From positions 277,133-341,132 of the forward strand of contig BPJG01000001.1 in NCBI GenBank assembly GCA_026004495.1: a DNA stretch of 64,000 nt. The letters run 5' to 3'. Shown here piece by piece: positions 643 to 49,865 of this stretch (position 1 is the first letter of the stretch; each line of letters begins with the position of its first letter). The notes beneath the pieces are model-generated. The model was not told where the DNA came from and did no database searches. It saw nothing but the letters and a program-made list of their open reading frames with translations. The position numbers and the translations under genes were made by a program. This DNA comes from Candidatus Parcubacteria bacterium (GTDB taxonomy: Bacteria; Patescibacteriota; Minisyncoccia; UBA6257; HR35).

Positions 643-1431
643 TTATTTAGATAATTTATTCATCTCCAATAGACGCTTTTGGGCAATCTCTACATATTTT
701 CTGTTATTATCGCATCCAATAAAATTTCTATTAAGTTTTTTTGCCGCGATTGCAGTTGTTCCTATGCCGATAAAGCAATCTAATACAAGATCGCCGGGAT
801 TGCTACTTGCTTTTATAATTCTTTCAATCATATCTAGTGGCTTTGGCGTTAAGTGGGGCAATTTAGGTGTCTTTCCATTAATTTTATTTTTATGTCTTTC
901 GCTCGAAAAATGCCATACATCGGTACATAATTTACCCTTAGGATTCGGAAACCACCTTTTCCCCTTCTTAAGAATTCCTTTAATTTTAGCATGCTCTATT
1001 CTTTCTGCCGACTCATAAGGAACTCTAATTTCATCTGTATTGAATGTGTAATTATTGCTTTTCGTGAAAAATAATATTGTCTCTTGTCCATTTGTATATT
1101 TTCTTTTCGCAGCAGATAACCCATCTCTTTTATCCCAAGTTATCCAGTTCTGGAAAATTAAACTTTTTTTTATCAAGTGTTGTAATATAAAAGCCGAGTT
1201 AAAAGGAGTATTAAAAATATACAAACTTCCAGTTTTTTTAAGTTTTGGTACTAAAGAATCTATCCATTTGTAAGTAAAGTTAAGAAAATCATCATGGGAT
1301 TTAAAGGTATCCCATTTTGCTTTTTTTAAATTGTAAGGCGGATCAATTACAGCGAGATCTATTACCTCATTGTCAATCTTGCTTAAAAAATCAAAACAAT
1401 CCATTAAATAAATTTTATTTATCTTAAGCAT
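643..1431 (-). CDS. DNA methyltransferase, beta-class N6-adenine or N4-cytosine (DPPY motif)
   Basis: Motif IV VIDLAVIDPPYNL is near the N-terminus and motif I LVLDCFIGIGTTAIAA is near the C-terminus. This permuted order is typical of beta-class amino-methyltransferases (N4/N6 methylase domain). Confidence 0.85.
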   Translation of the reverse strand: MLKINKIYLMDCFDFLSKIDNEVIDLAVIDPPYNLKKAKWDTFKSHDDFLNFTYKWIDSLVPKLKKTGSLYIFNTPFNSAFILQHLIKKSLIFQNWITWDKRDGLSAAKRKYTNGQETILFFTKSNNYTFNTDEIRVPYESAERIEHAKIKGILKKGKRWFPNPKGKLCTDVWHFSSERHKNKINGKTPKLPHLTPKPLDMIERIIKASSNPGDLVLDCFIGIGTTAIAAKKLNRNFIGCDNNRKYVEIAQKRLLEMNKLSK

Positions 1432-1436
1432 ATTTA

Positions 1437-2300
1437 CTAAAATAATTGTTTTTGTTTAATCTCAGCTAATCTTAATTTTTCTTCAATAATATCTTTATAA
1501 GTTTCCATTATTTCGTAACCGACATAGTTTCGGCCTAATTCTTTAGCCACCTTTAAAGTAGTCCCAGAGCCCGCAAATGGGTCTAAAACTATATCCCCAA
1601 TAAAAGTAAATAATTTTACACATCTCCTTACAATCTCTTCTGGCATAATAGCGGAATGTTTTCCGAATGCTATATCATCTTTACCGGGAATAGGTATATT
1701 CCAAATCTGCTTGGTGTATTCTGTCCATTCTTTTTCGGTAAGTTTACTTTTTTCTCGTATTTCTTCTGGCACATTGTTATCTGGTTTTCCATCTTTCACA
1801 TATACGGTAATAAATTCACTTGTATTTTGGGCATAAAAATTTCTGGGATATGGATAACTGCCAAACATTAAATCCTTTGATGGATTAGTTCTATTCCAAA
1901 TATAGATGTCATATAAAAATAATTTTGTATTGTTCAAAATGGAATGTTCTATATCAGCGTTAATATCAAAAATATGTCTATTGTAATGAGTATTAAAATC
2001 TTTTTTAAGCATTGGCATTAAAGGAACATTAATCACTAACTTTCCATTTGGTTTTAAAACCCTTTCGCATTCTTTCCAAACTTTTAACATTTCTTTAATG
2101 TATTGTTTATAATCCTCAATATCTCCAATTTGTCCTTCTTTTTTCTCAGTGATTTTATTTACTTGATAACCATCTTTTGAGTAATCTTTTATATTAAAAT
2201 ATGGCGGTGAGGTCACTATTAAATGAATAGAATTATCCGGAATTTCAGACATATTCCTTGCATCTTTATAAAATACTTTATTTATAAAATCTTTGGTCAT
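1437..2300 (-). CDS. DNA methyltransferase, beta-class (SPPY motif, N4-cytosine-like)
   Basis: IHLIVTSPPYFNIKDY is motif IV; SPPY/SPPF is common in m4C methyltransferases. Motif I (FxGxG) appears as LDPFAGSGTTLKVA near the C-terminus. The stop lies 6 nt upstream of the next methyltransferase start. Confidence 0.85.
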   Translation of the reverse strand: MTKDFINKVFYKDARNMSEIPDNSIHLIVTSPPYFNIKDYSKDGYQVNKITEKKEGQIGDIEDYKQYIKEMLKVWKECERVLKPNGKLVINVPLMPMLKKDFNTHYNRHIFDINADIEHSILNNTKLFLYDIYIWNRTNPSKDLMFGSYPYPRNFYAQNTSEFITVYVKDGKPDNNVPEEIREKSKLTEKEWTEYTKQIWNIPIPGKDDIAFGKHSAIMPEEIVRRCVKLFTFIGDIVLDPFAGSGTTLKVAKELGRNYVGYEIMETYKDIIEEKLRLAEIKQKQLF

Positions 2301-2515
2301 ACTTTTATTAACTGGTCTAAAGAAATATCCAAAGCCTTTGCAATTTTAGCAACGACAAAAACTGAAGGTTTTTTAATAACGCCAACCTCTATCTTTGTTA
2401 ATGTTGTATAGGGGACATCAGCTTTTCGAGCTAATTCGTCCTGCGAAAGATTCTTTTTTAATCTTAATTCTTTTATTTTTTTGCCTAATAAATTATTGAC
2501 TTGTTTATTTACCAT
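2297..2515 (-). CDS. XRE-family HTH protein, probably an R-M controller (C) protein
   Basis: A 72-aa protein with a helix-turn-helix signature: LSQDELARKADVPYTTLTKIEVG. Its stop overlaps the methyltransferase start (ATGA). It sits first in the apparent operon. Confidence 0.65.
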   Translation of the reverse strand: MVNKQVNNLLGKKIKELRLKKNLSQDELARKADVPYTTLTKIEVGVIKKPSVFVVAKIAKALDISLDQLIKV

Positions 2516-2526
2516 ATTGTGATATC

Positions 2527-2555
2527 ATTAAATTGTTGACACTGCTTACTTTCAA
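2527..2555 (-). promoter_or_regulatory. Candidate sigma-70 promoter for the controller-methyltransferase operon, giving a near-leaderless transcript
   Basis: On the minus strand: TTGAAA (2555-2550), a 17-nt spacer, then TTTAAT (2532-2527). The ATG at 2515 follows about 11 nt later. A perfect palindrome TGATATCA lies at 2520-2527, between the -10 element and the ATG. Confidence 0.3.
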
Positions 2556-2589
2556 GATTATAATAACATAAAATTAAAAATCAAACAAC

Positions 2590-2815
2590 AATTTTTCGCC
2601 CGCGAAGCGGGCGTGAAGGGTGGGCAGGCTCCGAAAATTAAGCCCGCAAAAATTTAATTCATTTTTAAAGGAAAAAATTTGTCGCCCGCCCTTAAATAAA
2701 ATTAAAAAATTTTGCGGGCTTGTCCGCTAAAGGCGGACTTTCGGAGCCATGGGTGGGAATCCGCGAAGCGGATTTCTGCCCCGCCCCGCAAAGCGGGGCG
2801 GGGCAGTTCAGTCAG
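2590..2815. other. GC-rich cluster of nested hairpins of unknown function (possible structured RNA or recombination-associated element)
   Basis: Hairpins: CGCCCGC-GAA-GCGGGCG (2597-2613), ATCCGC-GAA-GCGGAT (about 2758-2772), and a 13-bp stem TGCCCCGCCCCGC-AAA-GCGGGGCGGGGCA (about 2777-2805). Long-range complementary pairs: GGCTCCGAAA (2628) with TTTCGGAGCC (2737); AAGCCCGCAAAA (2640) with TTTTGCGGGCTT (2710); plus GTCCGC-TAAAG-GCGGAC. The GCGAAGC core also recurs inside the 72-bp inverted repeats. Confidence 0.35.
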
Positions 2816-2861
2816 CGTCAGGATTTTGTTGATAGAAAGTTCTAACTTTTTCAAGTAAGTT

Positions 2862-2933
2862 CCACCATAGACGATTTGTTTCGCCCTCGCCCCTCGCTTC
2901 GCTCGGGGCTCGGGCTTCGGCGGGCAGAAAATA
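2862..2933. repeat. Left copy of a perfect 72-bp inverted repeat (IR-L)
   Basis: By manual alignment, the reverse complement of 4429-4500 is identical to 2862-2933 over all 72 positions. About 65% GC. Contains CCACCATAG, the complement of the tRNA-Glu 3' end. Confidence 0.9.
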
Positions 2934-2991
2934 TTTTCGCCGAAGGCGAAAATTCAAAGCGAAATTTTTTAAAAATTGTCGGTGTAAAAAT

Positions 2992-4551
2992 ATGATTAAA
3001 TATTTCATCTATTGTCGAAAATCAACCGAGGAAGAAGAAAGACAAATTCTGTCTATTGAGGCACAACTTCAAGAGCTTCGGGATTTTGCAAAACAAAATA
3101 ATCTTTTTGTTGTCCGCGAATTTACCGAAAAACAATCGGCCAAAGAACCGGGCCGTCCGATTTTTAATGAAATGCTTTCACGAATTGAAAAAGGAGAAAC
3201 TAATGGAATTTTAGCGTGGAATCCCGACCGCCTCGCCAGAAATTCCATTGATGGCGGACGAATTATTTATCTCGTTGATACCGGAAAAATTACCTCGCTA
3301 AAATTCCCGACTTTCTGGTTTGAGCCAACGCCACAAGGAAAATTTATGCTTTCGGTGGCTTTTGGCCAAGCCAAATATTACACCGACAATTTGAGAGAAA
3401 ACATTTTGCGAGGAATAAGACAAAAACTTCGTAGAGGAGAATTGCCGGCAAAAGCGCCACTTGGCTATTTCAATGAGCCAAGATTAAGAACAATTGAACC
3501 AGACCCAAAAACTTTTAAGAAAGTAAAACAATGTTTGGAATCTTTTGCCACTGGCGAATATACTTTAACAAAAATTCAGAGCAAAATGTTTTCTCTTGGC
3601 TTGGTTGGCAAAGACGGAAAACCTTTGCATCTTTCAACAATTCAAGGAATTTTAACCAACCCCTTTTATTATGGAATGTTTTTGTATCGTGGCGAACTAT
3701 ATCAAGGAAGCCATAAGCCAATGATTACAAAGAAACTTTTTGACAAAATACAGGAAGCACTAAAACAAAATAGTAAGCCCCGCAAAAAGCGAAAAGAAAA
3801 ACAATTTTTGTTTTTAGGTTTTGCCCGCTGTGGTGAATGTGGTTATATGATTACTGCTGAAAAACACATTAAGAAAAGCGGTTTAGAATTTGTTTATTAT
3901 CGCTGTACTAAAAAGAGCAAAACAATAAAGTGTTCACAAAATCGCTTTTTGCGGGAAGAAAAATTAGCCGAGCAAATAAAAGATTATGTTCAAAAAGTTT
4001 CTTTACCCGATGAGTGGCGAGAGAAATATCTTGCTAAAGTTAACGAGTGGGAAAAAGAAAATCTTCACTCATCAGAACTTTTCGCTCAAAATCTTAAAAC
4101 TGAATTAGAGAAAGTAAAGTCAAAAATAAATCGCCTGATGGACGCGTATCTTGAAGGCGATTTGGAATTGCCAGAATTTCAGTTAAAGAAAAACGAATTG
4201 ATGACAAAAAAGAAAGATATTGAGGAAAAATTATCTGATTTTGAGCGAAAAGGCAATCATTGGCTCGAACTCACCAGAAATTGGATAATTGAAGCCAACC
4301 AAGCCAAAAATTTCGTTTTGGAAGGTAATTTTTCAGAGATGAGAAATTTTCTACAAAAAATCGGTTCGAACCGAACAATTCGCGACAAAAAACTTACAAT
4401 AGAATTTAAAAAACCTTGGGATTACCTTTATTTTCTGCCCGCCGAAGCCCGAGCCCCGAGCGAAGCGAGGGGCGAGGGCGAAACAAATCGTCTATGGTGG
4501 CCCCAAGGGGAATCGAACCCCTATTTCCACCTTGAAAGAGTGGTGTCCTAG
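2992..4551 (+). CDS. Large serine recombinase (resolvase/integrase family)
   Basis: N-terminal resolvase catalytic motif YCRKSTEEEERQ (nucleophile Ser). A recombinase domain follows. A Cys-rich zinc ribbon: ARCGECGY...YYRCTKKSKTIKC. Coiled-coil C-terminus. Total 519 aa. The last about 40 codons are encoded by IR-R and by the antisense tRNA-Glu, so the true stop is uncertain. GC content is higher than in the flanking genes. Confidence 0.85.
   Translation: MIKYFIYCRKSTEEEERQILSIEAQLQELRDFAKQNNLFVVREFTEKQSAKEPGRPIFNEMLSRIEKGETNGILAWNPDRLARNSIDGGRIIYLVDTGKITSLKFPTFWFEPTPQGKFMLSVAFGQAKYYTDNLRENILRGIRQKLRRGELPAKAPLGYFNEPRLRTIEPDPKTFKKVKQCLESFATGEYTLTKIQSKMFSLGLVGKDGKPLHLSTIQGILTNPFYYGMFLYRGELYQGSHKPMITKKLFDKIQEALKQNSKPRKKRKEKQFLFLGFARCGECGYMITAEKHIKKSGLEFVYYRCTKKSKTIKCSQNRFLREEKLAEQIKDYVQKVSLPDEWREKYLAKVNEWEKENLHSSELFAQNLKTELEKVKSKINRLMDAYLEGDLELPEFQLKKNELMTKKKDIEEKLSDFERKGNHWLELTRNWIIEANQAKNFVLEGNFSEMRNFLQKIGSNRTIRDKKLTIEFKKPWDYLYFLPAEARAPSEARGEGETNRLWWPQGESNPYFHLERVVS
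4429..4500. repeat. Right copy of the perfect 72-bp inverted repeat (IR-R)
   Basis: Exact reverse-complement match to 2862-2933. Overlaps the last 6 nt (CCACCA) of tRNA-Glu at 4495-4500. Confidence 0.9.
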
Positions 4552-14622: not shown

Positions 14623-15996
14623 TTATTCGTTACACCTTCGATATCGATTCCTAATAGATGGATCATTGCAATTACAGTAACTACTATCAATTTGACCCTG
14701 ATAAGGCTCCCAGGCTCCCCAGCTTCCATCAGCACGACGACAACTTCTTTCAATGCCTCCGGTAGTTTGTCTATATAAACAATTACACTCTTCAACGCTA
14801 ACAGTTGGACACTGAGCAGAGGTTGTGGTGTTTAAGGCTAATACAGTAGCTGTAGCATAATATGTTCCTGAAGCTGTCCAAGTGACGCTTGTGGTTACTG
14901 AACCACTAATTGAATTAATTATAGCTGAAGTATTGAATCGTAAGTATTGACCGCCAGAAGTAGCAATTAATAAAGTAAAGGTAGCATTAACTAATTGTTG
15001 AGAGCTTGAAGCAGTTAAAATGTAAGTAGTACTACTATTTATTCTTAAACCAGAAGCAGGAATGGCATTACACGAAAGAGAAAGAGTGGGTGGGGTAATA
15101 TTATTGTTAATTGTTATGGAAGCAAAATTAGAAATAATAGTATTGTCTGTTTGGAATTTTTTTAAATATAATCTATAATCACCACTCAGCGCATTATTAT
15201 AGATATTTAAATTCCTAACTACGAAAATATTATTTAGTTGATAATCGCTATTTCTAATATTATTAAATAATGGTCTATCAAATCCTGTAGTAGTAGGAGA
15301 AATGGTTGCTTCTCCTTCAACTAAATTATTAGGACAATATATTTTCTTATAATAAATTTGATAAGGAATTTTTGCCGAAGGATTACTATTTGTCAAAGTC
15401 ACAGAAGTAGCTATTGGTATTAAATAATATTGATTATTATTAGGATTTAAAGCAGTACTACTTGAAACTAAATAAAAATTTATTTGACCTAAACTTTGAC
15501 CCCCTCGTGACGATGATGCCGAAATTAACCAATGTTCATATTCAGTACTAGTTGTTCTAGTTAACATACCATAAATAACACAATTCGAACCCTGAATATT
15601 TCCATTTAATGAAACGCAAGATGTACTATTTAATAATCTTGGACTTGAAGAGGGATAAATTCTCTCGAATTTCAAATTAATATTAGTTATTGCTGGTATG
15701 GTTAATTTATAAAATGATTTATCTAAGGCAGTTACATATGGAGATATGTTATATAATTTAGCAAATTCATCACCATTAATATTTGTTGTTATTCCAATCG
15801 AAGTTGAAGAACCTAGGTTTTGATAATTAGCCCTAGGATACACTTCTAAACTTATTGAATTAATACCATCATTTGGATTAATTATTTGACTTAATACTGT
15901 AGATTTATTTTCTTTAAAATAAAAAAAGGTTAAATAAACGAAAACTATTAAAAATATAAAATAAACGGTATTTACTATGATTTTATTTAATTTCAT
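14623..15996 (-). CDS. Secreted or anchored Ser/Thr-rich protein with a Cys-rich C-terminal domain
   Basis: N-terminal signal anchor. Ser/Thr/Asn-rich repeats. The last about 55 aa contain 7 Cys (CNCLYRQ...CRRADGSWGAWEPYQGQIDSSYCNCNDP...RRCNE). This C-terminal part is encoded by DNA of visibly higher GC. Confidence 0.55.
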   Translation of the reverse strand: MKLNKIIVNTVYFIFLIVFVYLTFFYFKENKSTVLSQIINPNDGINSISLEVYPRANYQNLGSSTSIGITTNINGDEFAKLYNISPYVTALDKSFYKLTIPAITNINLKFERIYPSSSPRLLNSTSCVSLNGNIQGSNCVIYGMLTRTTSTEYEHWLISASSSRGGQSLGQINFYLVSSSTALNPNNNQYYLIPIATSVTLTNSNPSAKIPYQIYYKKIYCPNNLVEGEATISPTTTGFDRPLFNNIRNSDYQLNNIFVVRNLNIYNNALSGDYRLYLKKFQTDNTIISNFASITINNNITPPTLSLSCNAIPASGLRINSSTTYILTASSSQQLVNATFTLLIATSGGQYLRFNTSAIINSISGSVTTSVTWTASGTYYATATVLALNTTTSAQCPTVSVEECNCLYRQTTGGIERSCRRADGSWGAWEPYQGQIDSSYCNCNDPSIRNRYRRCNE

Positions 15997-16049: not shown

Positions 16050-17252
16050 TTACTTATTCTTAATTAATTTAGCTAAAATATTAACTAAATAATCAATATC
16101 CTTATTTTTTGTTTCTCTACCAAAAGAAAACCTTAGGCTATTTTTGCCTCTTTCGGGATATAATTTCGTCACAACCTCATTTGGCAATGGTGCTCTTGAT
16201 TTACAAGCCATACCTGAAGAAACAAAAATATTATTTTGATCTAAATAAATTAATATTTCTTCAGCAGTTTTTTGAGGAAAATAAAGATTGATTATTTTAG
16301 GCGTCGAAAGATTTAAATCGGCATTAATTTCAAAATTAATTTTATTTTGACTAATTTTATTTAAAAAATAAGTTCTTAAATTATCTAAATAATTTCTCAA
16401 ACTTATTCTATTATTAACAGCTATTTCCAACGCCTTAGCAAAACCAACTATTAGGGGAACATTCTCTGTTCCTGATCTTAAATTAAATTCCTGCTCTGAA
16501 CCAGAAATTAATTTTTCAAAAAATATATTATTTTTTTTATAAAGACAAGCAACTCCTTTGGGGCCATATATTTTATGACTAGATAATGTCATTAAATCAA
16601 CACCTAAGTCTTTAACAGAAATATTTTCTGTTAATGGCGCTTGACTAGCATCAAGATGAAACAAAATTTTCAAATCTCTATTTTTGTTAATTTCTTTTAT
16701 TATGTCAAAAATTTTTTTTACTGGTTGAATAATGCCTATTTCACTATTAACATAATGAATGGTTATTAAGCAAGTATTATTTTTAATAAACTTGAAAATT
16801 GAATCTAATTTTATTAAGCCATTTTTATCTAATGGCAAAAAATCATAATCAATTAAATTTATTTTTTTTAAATCTTTTAATGGCTCGATTATGGAAGGAT
16901 GTTCAATTTCAGTGGTAATAAAATGAGGTTTAATTCTTAATTTAAAGTAATAAAAAAAAGCTAAGCCTTTGATAACTAAATTATTACTCTCGGTAGCAGA
17001 AGAGGTGAATATAATTTCATTAAAATAATCAGCGGCAATTAAATTCTTAATTTTTTGACGCGATTCATCAATTACTTTTAGTGCTTTTTGGCCAAAACTA
17101 TGAATACTTGATGGATTAGCGAAAATCATCGAAAAATAAGGTTTCATTTCTTCAAAGACTTCGTTTAAAACAGGAGTAGTTGAGGCATAATCTAAATAAA
17201 TTATCTTTTTTCTGCTTTTATAGCTAAAATGTGCCAACCTGTTCTTAGCCAT
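16050..17252 (-). CDS. Cysteine desulfurase (IscS/NifS, aminotransferase class V)
   Basis: PLP-lysine motif SSHKIYGPKGVACLY. The catalytic-Cys region SGMACKS is near the C-terminus. The annotated start overlaps the upstream ORF by 52 nt, so the true start may be internal or non-ATG. Confidence 0.85.
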   Translation of the reverse strand: MAKNRLAHFSYKSRKKIIYLDYASTTPVLNEVFEEMKPYFSMIFANPSSIHSFGQKALKVIDESRQKIKNLIAADYFNEIIFTSSATESNNLVIKGLAFFYYFKLRIKPHFITTEIEHPSIIEPLKDLKKINLIDYDFLPLDKNGLIKLDSIFKFIKNNTCLITIHYVNSEIGIIQPVKKIFDIIKEINKNRDLKILFHLDASQAPLTENISVKDLGVDLMTLSSHKIYGPKGVACLYKKNNIFFEKLISGSEQEFNLRSGTENVPLIVGFAKALEIAVNNRISLRNYLDNLRTYFLNKISQNKINFEINADLNLSTPKIINLYFPQKTAEEILIYLDQNNIFVSSGMACKSRAPLPNEVVTKLYPERGKNSLRFSFGRETKNKDIDYLVNILAKLIKNK

Positions 17253-18037
17253 CTGTTTTCATTTATAACTGTTGAAATTGTTCTACAATTACTAATATCC
17301 AATGGTCTACTACTTGTTGGCATTGCCGAAAAAACAAAAATGAGATAATTTCCTTCTTCACGAATTAGGTTATTAATTTCAATTTTAGCGCTTGTTTCGG
17401 TACAAAAAACTGATTTAGCTTGAGAGGGATAACGAGCTATTTTTTTAGTTTCACCCTTAATATTGGGAAATTCAGTTAAATTACTATAGATCACATTATA
17501 AATTTCTATGCCGTTTCTTAAATAACTTGAGCCATAAATACCCCAACAATCTTGATCTACTAACATCGGTAATGGTTTATAGGTACAAAAAACATAAGCT
17601 TGCAGAGGTCTGGTATCTATATTAAAACTTAGATTACATCCAGAACTTGAAGTAGTAATTGAAATACTCGAACTATCAATTATTGTCCCAGCAACATCGC
17701 TTACTAAAGCATCATCGCCAATTAATTCACAAAAAAATGTTGCTGAGGTTGACGAAGTAGTGGTACTATTGATAATGTTGTTAGAATTATTAGAAAAAGA
17801 AATATTATCAGCTACATTTTCTTTTTCTAAAAAAGATAAAATAATAACAGGCAAAGAATAAACTGATATTAACAAAATTAAGCCTAAAATAACATAAGGT
17901 AAATTTTTTTTAACTTCATCAAATTTTTTAAAATAAAATAATAAACCAAGATAAATAAAAATTCCTATTGAACCTAAAATAATAATTACTTGAATTATCC
18001 TTAAAATATTATTCAAAATGTTAATTATTTCTTGCAT
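17201..18037 (-). CDS. VirB2/TrbC-like pilin-fold membrane protein with a C-terminal extracellular domain
   Basis: An N-terminal hairpin of two hydrophobic helices separated by a short K/N loop (IILGSIGIFIYLGLLFYFKK...VILGLILLISVYSLPVIILSF). A Ser/Thr-rich C-terminal domain with conserved Cys follows. Confidence 0.5.
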   Translation of the reverse strand: MQEIINILNNILRIIQVIIILGSIGIFIYLGLLFYFKKFDEVKKNLPYVILGLILLISVYSLPVIILSFLEKENVADNISFSNNSNNIINSTTTSSTSATFFCELIGDDALVSDVAGTIIDSSSISITTSSSGCNLSFNIDTRPLQAYVFCTYKPLPMLVDQDCWGIYGSSYLRNGIEIYNVIYSNLTEFPNIKGETKKIARYPSQAKSVFCTETSAKIEINNLIREEGNYLIFVFSAMPTSSRPLDISNCRTISTVINENRWLRTGWHILAIKAEKR

Positions 18038-18040
18038 TTA

Positions 18041-18295
18041 TTAAAAATTGGGCACAAATATTTTAATTATTTCAAAAAATAATTCTCTTTTAATAAAAAT
18101 TATACCTAAAATTAAAATTCCTAAAATAATAAATAAAAGTGATATCTTTAAATCTGAGTAATTTTTATTTTGAAAATAAATTTTTATACCGAAATAAATT
18201 AAACTAAAAATCGAAATTAAAATAGCAAAAATTAAAAGATAATTTACTAAATTTACAAAAAAATTAAGAATTGGTTGCGTAAAATGAGAAAACAT
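18041..18295 (-). CDS. Small two-helix membrane protein (pilin-like)
   Basis: An 84-aa protein with the two-helix hairpin pattern of the array. Separated from the neighbouring gene by 3 nt. Confidence 0.45.
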   Translation of the reverse strand: MFSHFTQPILNFFVNLVNYLLIFAILISIFSLIYFGIKIYFQNKNYSDLKISLLFIILGILILGIIFIKRELFFEIIKIFVPNF

Positions 18296-18298
18296 TTA

Positions 18299-18574
18299 TT
18301 ATTGAAGAAAAGAAAAAATAATTAAAGGGATAGAAAAAGAGGCAATGATTAAAATAATTCCTAAAATAATAAAAATTAATTCATTATGCCAATTTTTACC
18401 TTGGGTAGATATATATTTAATACCAGCAACAATTAACAATCCTATACCTAAAATTAAGCCTATATTAAAAAAAATCCATAACAACCCCTCTATTTTACAT
18501 AAAAAATATTCTAGACCAGATAAATCACCGCAACCCACTTCTTTACCTATTTGAGCTAAAGCATAGAATGACAT
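18299..18574 (-). CDS. Small two-helix membrane protein (VirB2/TrbC pilin-like)
   Basis: A Cys pair (GCGD...FLCK) precedes helix 1. The hairpin is LLIVAGIKYISTQGKNW...ILGIILIIASFSIPLIIFSF. Total 91 aa. Confidence 0.5.
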   Translation of the reverse strand: MSFYALAQIGKEVGCGDLSGLEYFLCKIEGLLWIFFNIGLILGIGLLIVAGIKYISTQGKNWHNELIFIILGIILIIASFSIPLIIFSFLQ

Positions 18575-18575
18575 C

Positions 18576-20147
18576 TTAATGACTTATTAGAATATTTTTA
18601 GAATATGGCAACCTAATTTTAGTATTACAATCTTTGATATCTAAAATTTCATACTCAACCTGAATAAAGGTATTGCTAGGTAGACCACTTAAGGGCAATT
18701 GGATAACTTTATTTGTCTTATTTCTTTCATAAGGAAGCCTGAAATTAAAGGATTGAATAAATCGGGTAAAGTTAGCACTAACAACTCTATTATTGCTTAT
18801 GTTTAAATTATTAGCCCTAGCGGCTCTTAATGATAATGTAATATTACAATAACCATTAGTTGAGGGCGCTGGATCAAAACTATAATTAAATCTAATGTAA
18901 AATGGAGGATCAAATAATGAATAATCAGAAATACCTGTAATTATATTTCTGAATATCGAATTTAAAACAGAATTTAAACTATTAAAATTCATATCTATAG
19001 CAAATGTTTGTCTACCAAAAATTTCAATATTAATATCTCTTAAAACAATCTCTCTCCTTTCTTGAGGAATAGTTAATGAATATTGACTTAGATTAACATT
19101 ACAATCATTTGATTCGAAATAAATAATTAAATTATCTCCAGGTTGAGGATCAAGGGAAGCAACTTGAATAGTTCGAATTTGATTATTAACACCAATATCT
19201 AATCTTTGAGAGCTAAAATTTTGAGATGGTCGACTACGATTATAAACTGAAACATTTAATCTGCATTGACCTGAATTAGTTCTGGCTAAAAAATTAATAT
19301 TATTATTAAAATAAACAATACTACCCTGATCAATTAAAATATTATTTCTAATTTGACCACTTTGATTTTGTTGACCACCTTGATTTTGTTGAGTAGAAGC
19401 TACAAATGTCCCTCGAGTTAAACCTATTTCTAGTGCCCTAACAAAACTAAATGCTAAAACAGCGATAATAACACCTAATAATCCGTAATAAAATCGAGCA
19501 TGAATATTAGAAGCTTCAGTTGGTTTAGTGATATATAAAATACCAGCCCAAATTAAAAATATAACTGCTAAAAAGAGAGCTAAACTATAAACAAATCTTA
19601 AAATAAGAATTAAAATCCATAGAACGCATTGATTTATTCCCTGCTCACAGAAATTAACCCTGGGCAAAGAACCTTGTCGAGAACTTACTCCTAGATAAAC
19701 AGATTCTAAACTACCTCCTGGACTTATTTTAACATTTAGAACAGTTAAATCTACAGCTTCGTTAGGACTAATACCTAAGTTTGAGGCAAGTCTATTTCTT
19801 TCTAGTGCATCTGTTTGAATTACCTCATTAGATGCCTGAATTAAAAGCAAACTCCAATTTCCAAAATTTTCTCTTACAGCTAAATTAACATCAATTGAAG
19901 GATCATTGCTGATAATGGTTGGACCACTAACTTGAAAAAGAGTGCTTGTTCCATAAGCTCTATTAAGTATTTCAGCAGCCTTTTCTCTAACTTTAGTTCT
20001 AAATTGCGAATCATCAATCACTCTAACCTCTTTTGTAGTTTTTATACCAAATTCGAAGGGATTAAAAAAATAATCTTGAGAAAAAGAAAATAAAGGCAAG
20101 AGAAAAAAATTTAATATCACAATTAAGAATCTAAATTTATTTATCAT
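18576..20147 (-). CDS. Pilin-fold core flanked by large N- and C-terminal extracellular domains
   Basis: Signal peptide. An N-terminal domain of about 170 aa. Then a Cys pair (CEQGINQC) followed by the two-helix hairpin ending in ...SFVRALEIGLTR. A Gln/Asn-rich linker. Finally a C-terminal domain of about 270 aa. Confidence 0.55.
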   Translation of the reverse strand: MINKFRFLIVILNFFLLPLFSFSQDYFFNPFEFGIKTTKEVRVIDDSQFRTKVREKAAEILNRAYGTSTLFQVSGPTIISNDPSIDVNLAVRENFGNWSLLLIQASNEVIQTDALERNRLASNLGISPNEAVDLTVLNVKISPGGSLESVYLGVSSRQGSLPRVNFCEQGINQCVLWILILILRFVYSLALFLAVIFLIWAGILYITKPTEASNIHARFYYGLLGVIIAVLAFSFVRALEIGLTRGTFVASTQQNQGGQQNQSGQIRNNILIDQGSIVYFNNNINFLARTNSGQCRLNVSVYNRSRPSQNFSSQRLDIGVNNQIRTIQVASLDPQPGDNLIIYFESNDCNVNLSQYSLTIPQERREIVLRDINIEIFGRQTFAIDMNFNSLNSVLNSIFRNIITGISDYSLFDPPFYIRFNYSFDPAPSTNGYCNITLSLRAARANNLNISNNRVVSANFTRFIQSFNFRLPYERNKTNKVIQLPLSGLPSNTFIQVEYEILDIKDCNTKIRLPYSKNILISH

Positions 20148-20208
20148 AATATTTTTATTAATGCCAATAAATAAATTATAAATTCATTTTTAAATCTTTA
20201 AACTATAT

Positions 20209-20604
20209 CTATCTGGTTAAAGTAAATTCTATTCCTCTTACTAAACTAAAAGATAAAATTGTAATTATCGCGCCTATAATTGCCCATATTAAATATTTTT
20301 TAGCATTCTCATCATTTGGTTTAGTTGAAAAAAGAAATCCACTATATATTATAAATCCAACTGATAATAAAAGAGAAATTGTATAAATGAGAGTTAAAAT
20401 TCTATTAGCAAATATTAACAAACATCTACTTAATAACCCAGGTGGCACTGGATTACCTCTTAATACTTGTAAAATATCAAATGGCACACAGTTTATTTTT
20501 TGAGGAACAAACTGCAATGATTGAGCGTAAATATTTTCGATAATAGATAAGCTAATATACAAAAAAACTGGTAAAAAAATTAGATAAATATAATTATTTT
20601 TCAT
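20209..20604 (-). CDS. VirB2/TrbC pilin-like two-helix protein
   Basis: A Cys pair (CVPF...SRC), then the hairpin ending ...SFSLVRGIEFTLTR. The close paralog 18576-20147 ends its hairpin with ...FVRALEIGLTR. Confidence 0.5.
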   Translation of the reverse strand: MKNNYIYLIFLPVFLYISLSIIENIYAQSLQFVPQKINCVPFDILQVLRGNPVPPGLLSRCLLIFANRILTLIYTISLLLSVGFIIYSGFLFSTKPNDENAKKYLIWAIIGAIITILSFSLVRGIEFTLTR

Positions 20605-20605
20605 T

Positions 20606-20932
20606 TTAACCTATCGAACCAGTTGAGGCTATTCTTTCTATCAATAAAACTAATGAATAAGAAACGAGTGCTGATACAAGTCCAATGATTATCCAAATTA
20701 AATTCTTGCTATAATTCTTAAATTCTTGTGGACTAACGATTATCTTTAATCCTGTAATTAATATCATAATAATCGAAAAAGCTAATGACAGCCAAATCAA
20801 AATACTAAATACCCATCTAAATAGCAAAAGCAGACAGGGTAGAACATCATCACAAACCAAAGGAACTGGAGGATTATTTGGAGAGGTCAAGCCAAAGCGG
20901 CTATCAAATGGATAGTTAACCTGAAATAACAT
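20606..20932 (-). CDS. VirB2/TrbC pilin-like two-helix protein
   Basis: A Cys pair (VCDDVLPC), then two helices. The ORF ends 1 nt before the start of the next paralog. Confidence 0.5.
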   Translation of the reverse strand: MLFQVNYPFDSRFGLTSPNNPPVPLVCDDVLPCLLLLFRWVFSILIWLSLAFSIIMILITGLKIIVSPQEFKNYSKNLIWIIIGLVSALVSYSLVLLIERIASTGSIG

Positions 20933-20949
20933 AAAAACTTATTTTAATC

Positions 20950-21321
20950 TTATTGACCAAGTTGTCCAGTTTGAACAAATCTTGATACCAAAGAAACGAC
21001 TGCCCAAGAAATTAAGGAAATTACTAAACCAATAATACCATAAATTATGTAATTCTTTCCAGAAGACATATCTCCCTTAAAAATAATTAAAATTCCTGCA
21101 TAGGCGAAAAATATAACAGCAAAACCTAAAGCTATCCAAATTAATACCCTAAAAACTATTTGAAATATATTGGTGATTGTTGACCTAGGATTATCTTGAA
21201 TTAGCCCACTGTCTGGGTTATCTACGTCAAATTGGGGCAAATCTTGGCCCTTAATGTAAATGGGTAAAAATAAACCAATAAAAAGATATATTAAAAAGCT
21301 ATAAATTAATAATTTTCTCAT
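20950..21321 (-). CDS. VirB2/TrbC pilin-like two-helix protein
   Basis: A signal-like N-terminus, then the hairpin ALGFAVIFFAYAGILIIFKGDMSSGKNY...ISLISWAVVSLVSRF. Confidence 0.5.
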   Translation of the reverse strand: MRKLLIYSFLIYLFIGLFLPIYIKGQDLPQFDVDNPDSGLIQDNPRSTITNIFQIVFRVLIWIALGFAVIFFAYAGILIIFKGDMSSGKNYIIYGIIGLVISLISWAVVSLVSRFVQTGQLGQ

Positions 21322-21449: not shown

Positions 21450-22964
21450 ATGTTATCTAGGGTATATTCAGCAATTTTAGACGGTTTAAGTGGTAATATT
21501 ATAGAAATTGAAACTGGGATAATGGTTGGCTTAAATAACTTTTCAATAATTGGTTTAACTGACAAAGCTATCCAAGAATCAAAAGAAAGAATTAATTTAG
21601 CATTAAAATCAATTAACGCTAAGCCCCCATTAAAATTCAATAGGCGAATAGTGATTAATTTAGCTCCAGCGGATTTAAAAAAAGAAGGTTCCTATTTAGA
21701 TTTGGGAATTACGATTAGCTTTTTAATTGCTACAGAACAAATAAAGAATCCTGATAAAAAAATATTATTTCTAGGAGAGTTAGGTCTTGATGGAAGCTTA
21801 AAGAGAATAAGAGGGGCCTTGCCTATAATTTTAAGTTTATATAATCAATTTGAAGAAATATATCTACCTGAAGAAAATATTAATGAAATAAAATTCCTAG
21901 AAAATATTGATAATATTTATCTTTTTAAAAATCTTAAGGAAGTTATAAATCATTTAGAAAAAACCAAAATAAAAGAAAGATTCGTAGCCAATAAATTCAG
22001 TGAATTATATAATAATCGAAATGAGCATTCGTTAGAATCAATAAAAATTTCTGAATTTATCTTGAGAGCTTTATTAATTTCTGCGTCGGGAAATCACAAT
22101 TTATTACTCTTTGGACCACCAGGAACAGGCAAAACTCTAATTGCTAAAAATTTAGTTAACCTTCTGCCAGATTTAGATTACAAAGAATCATTAGAAGTAA
22201 GTAGTATTTATAGTGCTTATGGTTATAATATCGACAATTTAATCATTAGGCCACCATTTAGAAATCCTCACCATACTGCTTCAACAGTAGCTATAATCGG
22301 TGGTGGGCATCCAATTAGGCCTGGAGAAATTACTTTATCTCATCGAGGTGTTCTTTTTTTAGATGAATTACCTGAATTTAAAAGAGATGCCCTAGAATCA
22401 CTTAGAGAACCATTGGATAATGGCGAAATAAATATTACAAGGGCTAAAAATAAAATAAGATTTCCAGCCAAATTTTTATTAGTTAGCGCTTGTAATCCTT
22501 GTCCTTGTGGTTTTTATAGTGATAAACTTAAAGAATGCCATTGTAGTATAACTGAAATAAAAAAATATCAAAAAAAAATTTCGGGACCGATATTAGACAG
22601 AATAGATATGAAAATAAATGTTCCTCGTTTAACTTCTGAAGAAATTTTTAATAATTCTGAATTGGATGTCAAGAATATAATTAACAAAATAAAAGAATTA
22701 AAAGAAAGACAAATTAAAAGACAAAATAAATATAACAGCGAACTGTCGCCTAAAGAAATAAAAAAATATTGTCGTTTAACCCAGCAAGCAGAAAATTTAT
22801 TAAAAAATTCGATTGATAAATTGTATCTTTCCGCTAGAGGAATACATAAAATTATAAAAATAGCTAAAACAATTGCTGATTTAGATAATAAAGATATCAT
22901 TGATGAAAATCATATCGCTGAAGCCATTCAATATCGATTAACAGATTTTAATAATAATGATTAA
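21450..22964 (+). CDS. comM: YifB/ComM family Mg-chelatase-like AAA+ ATPase
   Basis: N-terminus MLSRVYSAILDGLSG...IEIE. Walker A GPPGTGKT. A C-terminal Cys cluster CNPCPCGFY. Total 504 aa. Confidence 0.85.
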   Translation: MLSRVYSAILDGLSGNIIEIETGIMVGLNNFSIIGLTDKAIQESKERINLALKSINAKPPLKFNRRIVINLAPADLKKEGSYLDLGITISFLIATEQIKNPDKKILFLGELGLDGSLKRIRGALPIILSLYNQFEEIYLPEENINEIKFLENIDNIYLFKNLKEVINHLEKTKIKERFVANKFSELYNNRNEHSLESIKISEFILRALLISASGNHNLLLFGPPGTGKTLIAKNLVNLLPDLDYKESLEVSSIYSAYGYNIDNLIIRPPFRNPHHTASTVAIIGGGHPIRPGEITLSHRGVLFLDELPEFKRDALESLREPLDNGEINITRAKNKIRFPAKFLLVSACNPCPCGFYSDKLKECHCSITEIKKYQKKISGPILDRIDMKINVPRLTSEEIFNNSELDVKNIINKIKELKERQIKRQNKYNSELSPKEIKKYCRLTQQAENLLKNSIDKLYLSARGIHKIIKIAKTIADLDNKDIIDENHIAEAIQYRLTDFNNND

Positions 22965-32527: not shown

Positions 32528-35497
<2,970 letters not shown>

Positions 35498-36783: not shown

Positions 36784-37350
36784 ATGAACAGTAATAAATT
36801 TTTAAAAGAAATAGATAAATTATATAATTTAAAAAATTGGGAATTAAATTTATTTGAGTTTAATTTCGTTGATAAGGATGAAATTTCTGCTTATTTAAAA
36901 TTTTCTAATAATTTTAATAATTTAGATGGGATATTTTCTAACATTCAACTAAATCAAGAAAATATTAAAAAGAATGTCCTGCTTTATTTACTCATAAGGA
37001 ATTTAGTTAATAGCAATAATGATCACAATTTTTCGTTAATTAATAATAAAATAAAAACCTTAAAGCTGATAAAAGAATTAAACTTTAATTACCAAGAAAA
37101 TATTCTAAAAACTTATGTTTTGAGTGGAATTTACTTTATCAAAGAAAATATTGATCATCCATTTATTAATTTTAAAAAATCTTTATTAAAATATTTTCAT
37201 GATAGCGGAGGGTTTGACATTGATGTTTGGGGAGTAAATATTAAGATAAATATTTTAATAGAATTGATAGATAGAAATGATTTAGAAATAATTCTTAATA
37301 AAAATAAAAATATAGATTGGCAACAATTTTATATGTTAACTTATTATTAA
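36784..37350 (+). CDS. Hypothetical protein
   Basis: A 188-aa ORF preceded by a G/C-tract hairpin in the 5' leader. No recognised motifs. Confidence 0.45.
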   Translation: MNSNKFLKEIDKLYNLKNWELNLFEFNFVDKDEISAYLKFSNNFNNLDGIFSNIQLNQENIKKNVLLYLLIRNLVNSNNDHNFSLINNKIKTLKLIKELNFNYQENILKTYVLSGIYFIKENIDHPFINFKKSLLKYFHDSGGFDIDVWGVNIKINILIELIDRNDLEIILNKNKNIDWQQFYMLTYY

Positions 37351-38627
37351 AATATCTTTTTAATTAAAACAGTAAAACCCAAAGCTAAAATTAAAAAAAT
37401 AGGTACTATAATAATATATAAAGTATAAACATCATGATCACCAAGATTATCATTAATATTAGCGGTTAAATTCTTATCTTTTTTTTCATTTTTATTATTT
37501 AGGGAATTATAATTTTTATATGATTCATTTTCTAAAATATTAAAGTTATTTTTTTTGTCTAAGCCTATAAAAATATTATGTTTTCCTGGGGTAGGTTCGG
37601 TAAAGTACCATTTGCCATTAATATCTCGGGAAAGGCTTTTTCCTTGTGGTGCCCTTCCGTTATATTTGATTGAAAAAACTTTATCATTTTTCCAAAATAA
37701 ACTTAAATTTTCACCTCTATTTTTTATTGAAAATTTATATTCTTTATTGTCAATAACAAAATATCCTTTAGGATCAATAAATCCCTTTAATTTATTTTTT
37801 TTATTACCTACTTCAAGAATAAAATTAGTTAAATTTATTTTTTCATCAGAATCATTAAATAATTCAATAAATTCATTTCCTTGATCTTTGCCTTCAGGAT
37901 TAGGCAAAAATTCATTTATTATTAAATTAAAAGCAGTTTCATTCTCATCTTGATTTAAAGAAGATAAAAAATTATTAATAAGCAAGCTTGAACTTGCTTT
38001 ATTTAAATTATTTGATGAAGTTAAATTTTTATTTATATTTACTATTCGATTATCCTCTTGTTTATTATAGTCTATATTATTATCATTATTATAATTATTG
38101 TTTTTATTATTAATTTTATAAACATTATCATCAATTAATATCCCTGGCGTGCCACCTTTTATTTTATTTTCTTTACAGGTATCATTTTCAAAAATTATTG
38201 AATAGCCATTATTAAAACCTCCACAATTTTTATTATAATAAACTTCTCCAATTAATTTTTTTTCATCATCAAATATTTGAATTTTACCTTCATTATTTTT
38301 TAAAGAAAAATTAGCTTCAATTAACTGAGAATTAACTTTGGGATATTCTTTTAAAAATAAATTTTTATCTTGAACAATAACAAAAACTTCATTTTCTTTT
38401 ATTTCTATATTTTGTTTAAAAATATGATTTTCGCCATCATTAATTTTCCAGCCCGATCTTCCGCTTTTTATTTTTATTGTTTCTTGATATTTATTAATAA
38501 CTTCTATCCACTCCCTACCATCATCATTGCCTTCAGGATTATACATACATTCTTTAATTAATAATTGAGCCAGAGATATTTGATAATTTAAAATAAATAT
38601 CAAAGTAAATATAAAAAGAGGCATCAA
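37347..38627 (-). CDS. Secreted protein with two lamin-tail domains (LTD) and a C-terminal membrane anchor
   Basis: Two copies of the LTD signature: CMYNPEGNDDGREWIEVIN and LPNPEGKDQGNEFIELFN. An Asn-rich linker. A C-terminal hydrophobic helix. Confidence 0.6.
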   Translation of the reverse strand: MMPLFIFTLIFILNYQISLAQLLIKECMYNPEGNDDGREWIEVINKYQETIKIKSGRSGWKINDGENHIFKQNIEIKENEVFVIVQDKNLFLKEYPKVNSQLIEANFSLKNNEGKIQIFDDEKKLIGEVYYNKNCGGFNNGYSIIFENDTCKENKIKGGTPGILIDDNVYKINNKNNNYNNDNNIDYNKQEDNRIVNINKNLTSSNNLNKASSSLLINNFLSSLNQDENETAFNLIINEFLPNPEGKDQGNEFIELFNDSDEKINLTNFILEVGNKKNKLKGFIDPKGYFVIDNKEYKFSIKNRGENLSLFWKNDKVFSIKYNGRAPQGKSLSRDINGKWYFTEPTPGKHNIFIGLDKKNNFNILENESYKNYNSLNNKNEKKDKNLTANINDNLGDHDVYTLYIIIVPIFLILALGFTVLIKKIF

Positions 38628-42577: not shown

Positions 42578-43036
42578 ATGCAGCGTCTTAAAAAGATATT
42601 TGTAATTTTGATATTTTTAATATATTTTTATTATACCAATTATGTAATCTCACCAACTGTTGCTATTGTTAACCCCTTAACTATAGAAGAAAATATTTTC
42701 TTAGATAACAATAAATATAATTTTAAAAATAAAACAAATCAAAAATACATAGTAGTGCTTACGGGGTATTCATCCAGTCCAGATGAAACTGATGATGATC
42801 CCTGGATTACTGCTTCAGGTGAGTGGGTATCTGATGGAACAGTAGCTTCTAATTTTCTATCATTAGGAACTAAAATTAAAATTCCAGAAATTTTTGGAGA
42901 TAAGATTTTTGTTGTAAAAGATAGGATGAATAAAAGATATGATAATAAAAATCATATTGATGTTTGGTTTCCTACTAAAGAAGAAGCTCTTGTTTTAGGA
43001 AAAAAAATAACTCAAATAATTGTAATTTCAGATTAA
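42578..43036 (+). CDS. 3D-domain protein (MltA/RlpA-like lytic transglycosylase fold)
   Basis: Signal anchor. The C-terminal motif DETDDDPWITASGEW...KDRMNKRYDNKNHIDVWF carries the three-Asp signature. Confidence 0.6.
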   Translation: MQRLKKIFVILIFLIYFYYTNYVISPTVAIVNPLTIEENIFLDNNKYNFKNKTNQKYIVVLTGYSSSPDETDDDPWITASGEWVSDGTVASNFLSLGTKIKIPEIFGDKIFVVKDRMNKRYDNKNHIDVWFPTKEEALVLGKKITQIIVISD

Positions 43037-48097: not shown

Positions 48098-48235
48098 TAT
48101 TTTTAATTATAAAATAAAGTAATTAATATTAATAATAATTTTTGTTAATATGTGGATAATTTATAAAAAATATAAAAAAACAAATTTATTTAAAAATTTT
48201 TATATGTTAATAAATTCTTAATAATATTTTAATAT
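48098..48235. promoter_or_regulatory. Putative oriC core (dnaA-dnaN intergenic region) with a perfect DnaA box at 48151-48159
   Basis: A 138-bp, extremely AT-rich spacer. It contains TGTGGATAA (the DnaA box on the minus strand) plus the AT-rich repeats ATGTTAATA and TGTTAATAT. Confidence 0.45.
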
Positions 48236-49591: not shown

Positions 49592-49730
49592 AGAAAAATA
49601 AATTTTTTATATTATAATTATATTAAAGCTTAAGACAAAATTAAAATAAGGTAAATTATAATAATTATAAGTACTTTCGTCAATCTTTATTAAGTTAACT
49701 TAAATAATAATTATATATCTTAAATTTTAA

Positions 49731-49865
49731 ATGATAAAAATTAAAAAAATTAGCCTTAAAAAAAGAAAAAGGAAAATAGGGTTTTTATCAAGAAATAAGA
49801 CCAAGGGTGGGCAAAAAATAATTTCTCAAAGAAGAAGGAAAGGAAGAAAAAGATTAGCTGGTTAA
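49731..49865 (+). CDS. rpmH: 50S ribosomal protein L34 (44 aa), absent from the ORF track
   Basis: Hand translation gives MIKIKKISLKKRKRKIGFLSRNKTKGGQKIISQRRRKGRKRLAG, matching the L34 consensus (KRKR..GF..R..T.GGR.VL..RR.KGRKRL). The TAATG at the 3' end overlaps the rnpA start. Confidence 0.8.
   Translation: MIKIKKISLKKRKRKIGFLSRNKTKGGQKIISQRRRKGRKRLAG

Follow-up and report, generated by a model that had tools for sequence, protein, structure and literature searches.

A conserved array of seven divergent VirB2-like pilin genes, two with large predicted extracytoplasmic domains, in a hot-spring Parcubacteria genome

What does a tandem set of seven genes for pilin-like membrane proteins build, and why do two of its members carry large additional domains? 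This question is raised by a 64-kb window (64,000 nucleotides, the whole stretch of DNA analysed, with ~25% G+C) from the hot-spring metagenome-assembled genome (MAG) 'Candidatus Parcubacteria bacterium KatS3mg094' (ultrasmall bacteria of the Patescibacteria/CPR), in which seven consecutive open reading frames (ORFs), all on the minus strand, span positions 17201-21321. A first-pass annotation, made from the letters of this DNA, had described them as seven consecutive minus-strand genes for paralogous VirB2/TrbC-like pilins with gaps of 1-61 nt, and the ORF coordinates match this description exactly. From slot 1 to slot 7 the products measure 123, 108, 131, 523, 91, 84 and 278 aa, and the intergenic gaps, as computed from the ORF coordinates, are 17, 1, 61, 1, 3 and 3 nt. 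A promoter and terminator scan of the region from 15.9 to 21.6 kb found no terminators, and hence none inside the array, while its 44 promoter-like sites against 42 expected are uninformative in DNA of 26% GC. The short gaps (1-17 nt) together with the lack of internal terminator-like sites point to co-transcription and fit a single operon. The seven members are as follows:

20950 to 21321, minus strand: slot 1, 123 aa; signal-peptide-like N-terminus and two-helix core ending ...TGQLGQ; 53-68% identity with its orthologues
20606 to 20932, minus strand: slot 2, 108 aa; without signal peptide; a conserved Cys pair (PLVCDDxLPC) before helix 1
20209 to 20604, minus strand: slot 3, 131 aa; predicted signal peptide and Cys pair; core ending ...VRGIEFTLTR; the sole member above a Pfam gathering score
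18576 to 20147, minus strand: slot 4, decorated VirB2-like pilin of 523 aa; predicted signal peptide, N-domain, Cys pair, core, linker and two C-terminal domains
18299 to 18574, minus strand: slot 5, 91 aa; without signal peptide; Cys pair C15 and C26; the most conserved slot, 67-83% identical to its orthologues
18041 to 18295, minus strand: slot 6, minimal two-helix member of 84 aa; no Cys and no signal peptide; the most divergent member
17201 to 18037, minus strand: slot 7, decorated VirB2-like pilin of 278 aa; N-terminal core, linker and C-domain; identical (100%) to NCBI KatS3mg094_284

Kyte-Doolittle hydropathy revealed two adjacent transmembrane (TM)-like segments in all seven members. 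Slots 1, 3 and 4 additionally have an N-terminal signal-peptide-like segment ending in ...AQ/SQ, while slots 2, 5, 6 and 7 begin with short N-tails that lack a leader; signal peptides and topology were judged from hydropathy only. The loops between the two helices contain K, N and G residues, and 4/7 members (slots 2, 3, 4 and 5) have a Cys pair immediately ahead of helix 1 that their orthologues share. Each of the seven proteins is thus predicted to form a helix-loop-helix hairpin in the membrane, and the AlphaFold2 (AF2) models described below likewise show hairpins. In the orientation that we predict, the short net-positive loop would be cytoplasmic and both termini outside; the conserved Cys residues are confined to those N- and C-terminal parts, so that the Cys pairs and the Cys-containing added domains would be extracytoplasmic.

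To relate the cores to each other, profiles of the individual slots, each comprising four orthologues, were compared slot against slot with hhalign. Slots 1-4 were found to be mutually related with probabilities of 95-99% and e-values of 1e-8 to 1e-17 (for example, 98.9% for slot 1 with slot 2 and 98.2% for slot 4 with slot 3). The N-terminus of slot 7 matches slots 1, 3, 5 and 6 at 92-96%, and slot 5 matches slots 2, 4 and 7 at 87-96% (slot 7 at 96%, slots 2 and 4 at 87-88%). Slot 6 is the weakest member of this network, with 94% to slot 7, 81% to slot 2 and 75% to slot 5. Furthermore, a hidden Markov model (HMM) of 28 cores, run against the 342 stop-to-stop frames of the window, recovered a single protein outside its training set, namely a 376-aa protein at 52538-53668 (E=0.023), and matched none of the other membrane proteins encoded there. 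Given these hhalign links and the lack of matches to unrelated membrane proteins of the window, the profile comparisons indicate that the similarity of the seven cores is homology and not shared hydrophobicity. The shared two-helix core and the absence of the Cys pair from some members, both of which had been noticed in the first-pass annotation, are therefore borne out; its statement that the core often ends in ...SFSLVRGIEFTLTR or ...FVRALEIGLTR proved too broad, as such endings (...TLTR/...GLTR) are found in slots 3 and 4 only.

The assignment of these cores to a family was assessed against two Pfam models, PF18895 (T4SS_pilin) and PF04956 (TrbC/VirB2), with gathering scores of 26.6 and 27.9 bits, respectively. 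Slot 3 scores 28.9 bits with PF18895 and is the only array member over a curated cut-off, whereas slot 1 (25.1), slot 2 (24.1), slot 4 (14.8, aa 182-238) and slot 7 (13.1 bits) fall below it. With PF04956, slot 5 reaches 21.2 bits (E=3.4e-4), slot 1 15.1 and slot 4 12.2 bits. Slots 5 and 6 have no match to PF18895, and slot 6 has no Pfam match of its own. The orthologues of slots 1-3, on the other hand, carry precomputed PF18895 annotations, and among 14 proteins comprising slots 5-7, their orthologues and two distant relatives, TrbC was matched by 7/14 and T4SS_pilin by 5/14 (best E 2e-11), with no other family matched by more than two of them. The NCBIfam model NF045849, for the Mbov_0395 family of pilin-like conjugal transfer proteins of Mycoplasma integrative and conjugative elements (ICEs), gave weak matches to slots 1, 2, 3 and 5, with e-values from 3e-4 to 4e-2, the lowest being that of slot 3 (E=3.5e-4). 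In larger databases the core profile recovers 10,502 representative proteins at E<=1e-3, some with TrbC and T4SS_pilin Pfam matches; against all PDB chains it drew in a chance match to a photosystem I subunit only (E=0.25) and no solved VirB2 or TraA. These results uphold the original identification of VirB2/TrbC-like pilin paralogues, which now has the Pfam matches, the recurrence of pilin families among relatives and the hhalign links behind it. Since all scores lie under the PF04956 gathering score, the array members are best termed 'VirB2-like' on sequence grounds, and not certified members of that family.

The loci fetched for homologues of slot 4 were L001 (GCA_025060085.1), L002 and L003 (both from ENA/Logan) and L004 (GCA_041640295.1), that is, four loci from three related genomes; L002 and L003 are 100% identical over 12.8 kb and so uninformative on within-species variation. 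In all of these the same seven genes occur in the same order and with near-same sizes between comM-PGK on one side and the aminotransferase gene on the other, and even the diminutive slot 6 has syntenic orthologues of 84-86 aa in the three genomes. Identity between orthologues ranges from 36 to 83% per slot, against 23-45% between paralogues, the latter measured over the cores only. As orthologues are far more alike than paralogues, the paralogues are old, and each has been individually retained. We noted a marked contrast within the individual proteins. The short pilins and cores share 54-85% identity with their orthologues, as compared with 55-77% for the flanking PGK, ComM, aminotransferase and TsaD. 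In slot 4 the core is 73-77% and the N-domain 58-67% identical to the orthologues, while the C-terminal domains show only 30-48%; in slot 7 the corresponding figures are 58-85% for the core and 24-34% for the C-domain. In these alignments, then, the cores are as conserved as their housekeeping neighbours, and the C-terminal ectodomains of slots 4 and 7 (24-48%) evolve fast. In a word-indexed search of 5.8 billion proteins, slot 4 returned only 14 homologues. Farther afield, loci L007-L009, a Niyogibacteria MAG among them, have arrays of 4-5 genes with long members of 449 and 214 aa.

The two decorated members were examined further with the aid of AF2 models. The model of slot 4 (pLDDT 73) comprises a signal helix, an α/β N-domain (~aa 42-154), the core hairpin (aa 171-244, with helices at 171-207 and 209-244), a disordered Q/N/G-rich linker and a C-terminal region (aa 269-523) that is β-rich, with pLDDT mostly 80-94 and four conserved Cys residues. 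A Foldseek search of the PDB with this C-terminal region recovered tandem β-sandwich proteins with e-values down to 2.8e-6, including transglutaminase C-terminal β-barrels, RbmA, cytokine-receptor D1D2 and PECAM IgL1-2. The C-terminus of slot 4 is accordingly predicted to consist of two Ig/FnIII-like β-sandwiches with an adhesin-like fold. In the model of slot 7 (pLDDT 69) the core occupies aa 2-74, with a hairpin at 2-35/39-74, and is joined by an S/T/N-rich linker to one β-sandwich C-domain with six conserved Cys residues. For this C-domain the Foldseek search gave no significant fold match; the best were MD-2/NPC2-type ML domains (E=0.02, prob 0.63), a similarity too weak for lipid binding to be claimed. 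The conserved Cys residues, four in the C-region of slot 4 and six in slot 7, fit an extracytoplasmic location. It had been proposed that different Ser/Thr/Asn-rich domains were grafted onto several members. Additions do exist, but large ones are confined to slots 4 and 7, the other five members being bare cores of 84-131 aa; moreover, the S/T/N- or Q/N/G-rich stretches are linkers, and what they connect are predicted folded domains.

A candidate machinery for such subunits is encoded ~31 kb from the array in the same window, in the form of a monoderm-type type IV secretion system (T4SS) with a split VirB4, a PrgI/VirB3-like protein and an eighth protein with the pilin core:

52538 to 53668, minus strand: eighth pilin-core protein, 376 aa; N-terminal two-helix core and ectodomain of ~290 aa; PF18895 26.3 bits
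54800 to 56590, minus strand: VirB4-type T4SS ATPase, P-loop part, 596 aa; PF19044 TraG P-loop 87.7 bits, AAA_10 52.2 bits
56591 to 57217, minus strand: TrsD-like protein, VirB4 N-domain, 208 aa; VirB4_plasma E=1.9e-10 and TrsD E=1.1e-3, both below curated cut-offs
57218 to 57724, minus strand: PrgI/VirB3-like small membrane protein; PF12666 PrgI 24.7 bits against a cut-off of 27
58621 to 60768, minus strand: candidate VirB6/PrgH analogue, 715-aa polytopic protein with hydrophobic segments; assigned by cluster position only

The TrsD-like protein matches the N-terminal ~130 residues of the Mycoplasma-ICE/VirB4 models and is directly followed by the P-loop ATPase; VirB4 thus appears to be split into two ORFs over 54800-57217. 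The 715-aa protein is supported by neither Pfam nor NCBIfam. The cluster also includes two small exported or membrane proteins; it abuts yidC, dnaA and dnaN (46970-50781) and is thereby origin-proximal, and a T4SS beside dnaA/dnaN/yidC is the arrangement reported for most Patescibacteria classes (PMC12102498). The window showed neither a relaxase nor a coupling protein or PrgB-type adhesin, its P-loop matches being of the VirB4 type only. The 376-aa protein has orthologues with precomputed PF18895 and shows a faint match to the 3D domain (E=0.059, aa 324-359), which raises the possibility of a cell-wall-acting, VirB1-like role; phmmer searches against the PDB with this protein returned nothing. 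A further paralogue of its core occurs elsewhere in the same genome (KatS3mg094_599), and in relatives a closely similar core is fused to a C39-like peptidase (PF13529; P0178 and P0181).

The searches with the core profile also drew in what may be called 'polypilins': 122 of the 150 best matches contain 2-16 tandem two-helix cores in one ORF, a proportion that gives no estimate of their frequency since the ranking favours multi-copy proteins. The extreme case is P0083, with 16 pilin cores in 1775 aa. P0038 (L010:950-4393, 1147 aa) and P0021 (L011:1777-3435, 552 aa) are uninterrupted ORFs with TrbC/T4SS_pilin Pfam matches, the latter being located within a 5-gene pilin array. Polypilins are not mentioned in the Patescibacteria T4SS paper (PMC12102498).

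Taken together, we consider it likely that the seven genes form one conserved operon of divergent VirB2-like pilins, which would be assembled by the T4SS into a surface filament or conduit with decorated, adhesin-like minor subunits. The characterised VirB2-type pilins of F- and T-pili have both termini outside, on the exterior of the pilus, while the loop lines the lumen. By this geometry a filament would bear the additions of slots 4 and 7 on its exterior. As a domain of 150-280 aa on each subunit would conflict with tight helical packing, the short members are expected to be structural and the decorated ones low-copy or terminal. The split VirB4, as the presumed motor, together with PrgI/VirB3 and the VirB6-like protein near dnaA, would extract the pilins from the membrane, and the extracted subunits would be built into a surface filament or conduit contacting a host bacterium. 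In such a structure the five short, strongly conserved members could occupy distinct, non-redundant positions as structural subunits, whereas slots 4 and 7 and the cluster-encoded 376-aa protein could serve as low-copy or terminal subunits. Their fast-evolving β-sandwich ectodomains on the filament exterior might provide adhesion or host recognition, and the decorated subunits might thereby fill the role of the VirB5/PrgB-type adhesins that have not been found in these systems. That the subunits assemble into a filament, that they divide into major and minor ones and that they mediate adhesion is what we infer by analogy from the evidence above, and several observations weigh against it. No pilus of a Patescibacterial T4SS has been observed, and a recent review treats the pilus as a possibility only (PMC12857230). 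Polymerisation is argued by homology alone, the array lies 31 kb from the T4SS genes and outside their cluster, and the AF2 models, built on alignments of 6-12 sequences, reach moderate confidence (pLDDT 69-73). Finally, a 280-aa domain would be hard to pack in a VirB2-type tube, so the decorated members might never enter the filament.

The last of these points leads to an alternative that we regard as unlikely but worth serious attention, in which the cores serve as membrane anchors, as display modules or as accessory channel subunits of the T4SS that never polymerise and merely tether the added domains. The steric awkwardness of large ectodomains and the lack of any observed pilus would both be accounted for in this way, as would the fusion of a similar core to a C39-like peptidase and the 376-aa protein with its faint 3D signal. 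Many members of the family are, moreover, concatenated polypilins, which could not pack like single VirB2 subunits unless processed. Yet five of the seven array members are bare cores with nothing to anchor that are nevertheless conserved like housekeeping genes; this speaks for a structural function of the core itself, and the homology is specifically to pilin families. A different alternative is that the array is an antigenic-variation or host-range cassette of interchangeable paralogues, expressed singly or swapped by recombination, along the lines suggested for the VirB2 paralogues of Bartonella Trw and Anaplasma. The high divergence of the paralogues (23-45% identity), the differing array composition of more distant relatives and the fast evolution of the slot 4 and slot 7 ectodomains, which at the sequence level fits host adaptation, would suit it, and adaptation to different host strains has been raised for such arrays (PMC12102498). 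Against this, the slots keep their order and sizes, each with a 1:1 orthologue, across three related genomes that share no more than 55-77% identity in their housekeeping proteins; purifying selection on the cores is comparable to that on housekeeping genes; and gaps of 1-17 nt without internal terminator-like sites favour co-transcription. The array also has no long direct or inverted DNA repeats that could serve gene conversion or inversion, and thus no repeats suited to cassette switching. We accordingly consider the cassette improbable, and the antigenic variation that the first-pass annotation had entertained is disfavoured in the form of cassette exchange by the 1:1 orthology in related genomes and the lack of long repeats.

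Two further explanations fare worse. The same annotation had linked the array through comM to DNA uptake, and a DNA-uptake filament coupled to the divergent comM could be supposed from the position of that gene directly upstream on the other strand, an adjacency that is conserved, and from the precedent of H. pylori ComB, a T4SS that imports DNA (as cited in a passage of PMC11665869). However, the synteny runs on through the unrelated PGK, aminotransferase and TsaD, making the adjacency little informative. In the cultivated relative S. epibionticum, competence needs comEC and is ascribed to type IV pili; the cells can do without it, but not without their T4SS and pilin array (PMC10633639, PMC12857230). 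A PilB-type ATPase of type IV pili is encoded elsewhere in our window. We therefore found no support for the proposed link: comM belongs to a conserved housekeeping block (comM, PGK, class-V aminotransferase, TsaD), a functional connection to it is rejected as housekeeping synteny, and a role of the array in DNA uptake is very improbable. The remaining explanation, that these are unrelated small membrane proteins such as holins or bacteriocin-immunity proteins, alike through hydrophobicity only, could draw on the sub-threshold values of most Pfam scores and on scattered weak matches to other membrane families. It is effectively refuted by the hhalign links of up to 99%, by the selectivity of the core HMM, which spares other membrane proteins of the window, and by the recurrence of pilin families alone; the only holin-type match is to Hol_Tox, at E=0.31. 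Holin or immunity-protein identity was accordingly rejected. Neither of the outcomes that had been named in advance as contrary to a pilin identity, assignment to a family of that kind or a topology unlike a two-helix hairpin, was encountered, the hydropathy and the AF2 models both giving a helix-loop-helix hairpin.

Returning to the reading of the array as an operon of filament subunits, we tentatively put forward a broader version of it, which we hold to be possible though on balance doubtful, whereby the two-helix core is a general modular display unit in Patescibacteria and decorated subunits set host specificity on a heteropolymeric filament with fixed core positions. If this were so, arrays would be systematically larger than HMM surveys report, their 'non-pilin' interruptions being divergent pilin cores; the displayed, fast-evolving ectodomains would be β-sandwich adhesin-like domains, possibly a lipid-binding ML-like domain (slot 7), and elsewhere 3D- or C39-type enzymes; and decorated subunits would be built-in tip or minor pilins replacing VirB5/PrgB, with the polypilins as an extreme form. 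Patescibacteria, which account for much of bacterial diversity, spend their lives attached to other microbes. The separation at this locus between what is constrained (cores, slot order, Cys pairs) and what is variable (β-sandwich ectodomains) indicates which subunits to target in the study of host recognition, and with its seven conserved slots the locus provides a clean case on the Parcubacteria side.

The neighbourhood of the array is dominated by housekeeping genes. On one side comM/YifB, for a Mg-chelatase-like ATPase (21450-22964), lies directly upstream, on the opposite strand and in divergent orientation, and is followed by PGK; on the other are the class-V aminotransferase (16050-17252), a conserved hypothetical protein of 457 aa, TsaD, an AI-2E transporter and an RNaseH-like protein. 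As listed, the aminotransferase ORF (16050-17252, minus strand, 400 aa) overlaps slot 7 by 52 nt; its orthologues, of 382-384 aa, begin immediately behind the stop of slot 7, and translation therefore probably starts ~18 codons past the first ATG. The 457-aa protein (14623-15996, minus strand) has an N-terminal TM or signal segment, S/T/N-rich repeats and a Cys-rich C-terminus, and no Pfam match. It is syntenic beyond the aminotransferase in all related loci (450-473 aa) yet only 38-53% identical, and may be another fast-evolving surface protein.

Elsewhere in the window, two adjacent N6/N4 DNA methylase genes (643-1431 and 1437-2300) and that of a large serine recombinase (2992-4551) occupy, next to tRNA-Glu and tRNA-Cys, a region (643-4551) with a G+C of 0.36 against ~0.26, which may represent what is left of an integrated mobile element. 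At 32533-35487 (minus strand) there is a full-length 23S rRNA gene, and no 16S or 5S rRNA gene was detected in the 64 kb, so that the rRNA genes appear to be unlinked. There are also genes for a PilB/GspE-type ATPase with an MshEN domain, the motor of type IV pili or type II secretion systems (43028-44692, minus strand), and for a lamin-tail-domain (LTD) protein (37347-38627, minus strand). The genome therefore has a separate type IV pilus system, which is the usual apparatus of competence and adhesion in this phylum.

How does the locus relate to known systems? Arrays of this kind were published between 2023 and 2025, and the present one is a good example of them rather than a new kind of system. 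In Ca. Southlakia epibionticum ML1, the one species amenable to genetics, Wang et al. (2023) described such an array within the T4SS locus SEML1_0006-0019 and found it essential for epibiotic growth on the host (PMC10633639; essentiality also in PMC12857230). In a survey of 3,035 Patescibacteria genomes based on PF04956 and PF18895, Quiñonero-Coronel et al. (2025) found 441 arrays, each of 2-11 VirB2 genes, distributed over 383 assemblies, and a pilin gene near virB4 in 1135/1948 assemblies; PrgB-type adhesins were not detected and no VirB5-type protein is known in these systems (PMC12102498). The verdict of 'poorly characterised biology' in the first-pass annotation is hence fair for function, the role of the T4SS and pilin array having been called 'completely unknown' (PMC11665869) and a 2025 review that highlights the arrays speculating on a pilus as a conduit to the host (PMC12857230), but not for the arrays themselves, which had already been described (PMC12102498). 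A VirB2 array in the sense of Quiñonero-Coronel et al. consists of at least two genes in tandem, or with one non-pilin gene between them, in a genome with VirB4; here seven adjacent VirB2-like genes occur with a VirB4 in the same genome.

The likeness to the published arrays extends to the phylum, the two Pfam families, the tandem and co-oriented genes, the divergence of sequence alongside alike structure (a published mean within-array identity of 25%, against 23-45% over the cores here) and the monoderm-type T4SS with VirB4, PrgI/VirB3 and a TrsD-like protein near dnaA. Unlike in ML1, where the array is inside the T4SS cluster, the present one lies 31 kb off, within a housekeeping block. The published pilin criterion is an i-Evalue <0.001 with >50% profile coverage; assessed here on whole-protein e-values, slot 5 passes, while slots 4, 6 and 7 miss the threshold, so that the published pipeline would probably see fewer pilin genes here, with 'non-pilin' genes between them. 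This suggests that published array counts underestimate membership, as decorated and divergent cores fall under the HMM thresholds. Neither this genome nor its relatives occur in two supplementary files of PMC12102498, and neither PMC10633639 nor PMC12102498 deals with decorated members that carry an α/β N-domain and β-sandwich C-domains. The locus adds to prior knowledge that orthology is fixed across all seven slots, that cores are conserved where ectodomains vary, and that decorated members can go unrecognised.

With the VirB2/TraA/TrbC pilins of diderms, such as those of the Agrobacterium T-pilus and the F-pilus, the array shares the small hydrophobic helix-loop-helix hairpin, a leader-like N-terminus in some members and a weak but recurrent profile similarity. 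It differs in its monoderm host, in PF04956 scores that all lie below the cut-off, in the lack of a sequence match to solved pilins, in the conserved Cys pairs before helix 1 and the ectodomains of 150-280 aa on some members, and in a T4SS without VirB5, VirB1, VirB7, VirB9 or VirB10 partners. The Mbov_0395/MMCAP2_0565 family of Mycoplasma ICEs (NF045849) likewise comprises small two-helix 'pilin-like' proteins of a monoderm (MPF-FATA-type) T4SS, and the best match of the TrsD-like protein of our window is a Mycoplasma ICE VirB4 model; scores with NF045849 are, however, 13-20 bits here, far under the cut-off of 40, and the pilin-like gene of Mycoplasma ICEs is single, with no array. Patescibacterial arrays have further been likened to those of the Bartonella Trw system and the Anaplasma phagocytophilum T4SS, which also have multiple tandem VirB2 paralogues in host-associated bacteria and for which a host-surface role has been proposed (PMC12102498). 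In Bartonella and Anaplasma these paralogues are recent and similar copies, thought to vary surface antigenicity, whereas those of the present array are ancient, each following its own conserved line of orthologues, and some have acquired whole extra domains.

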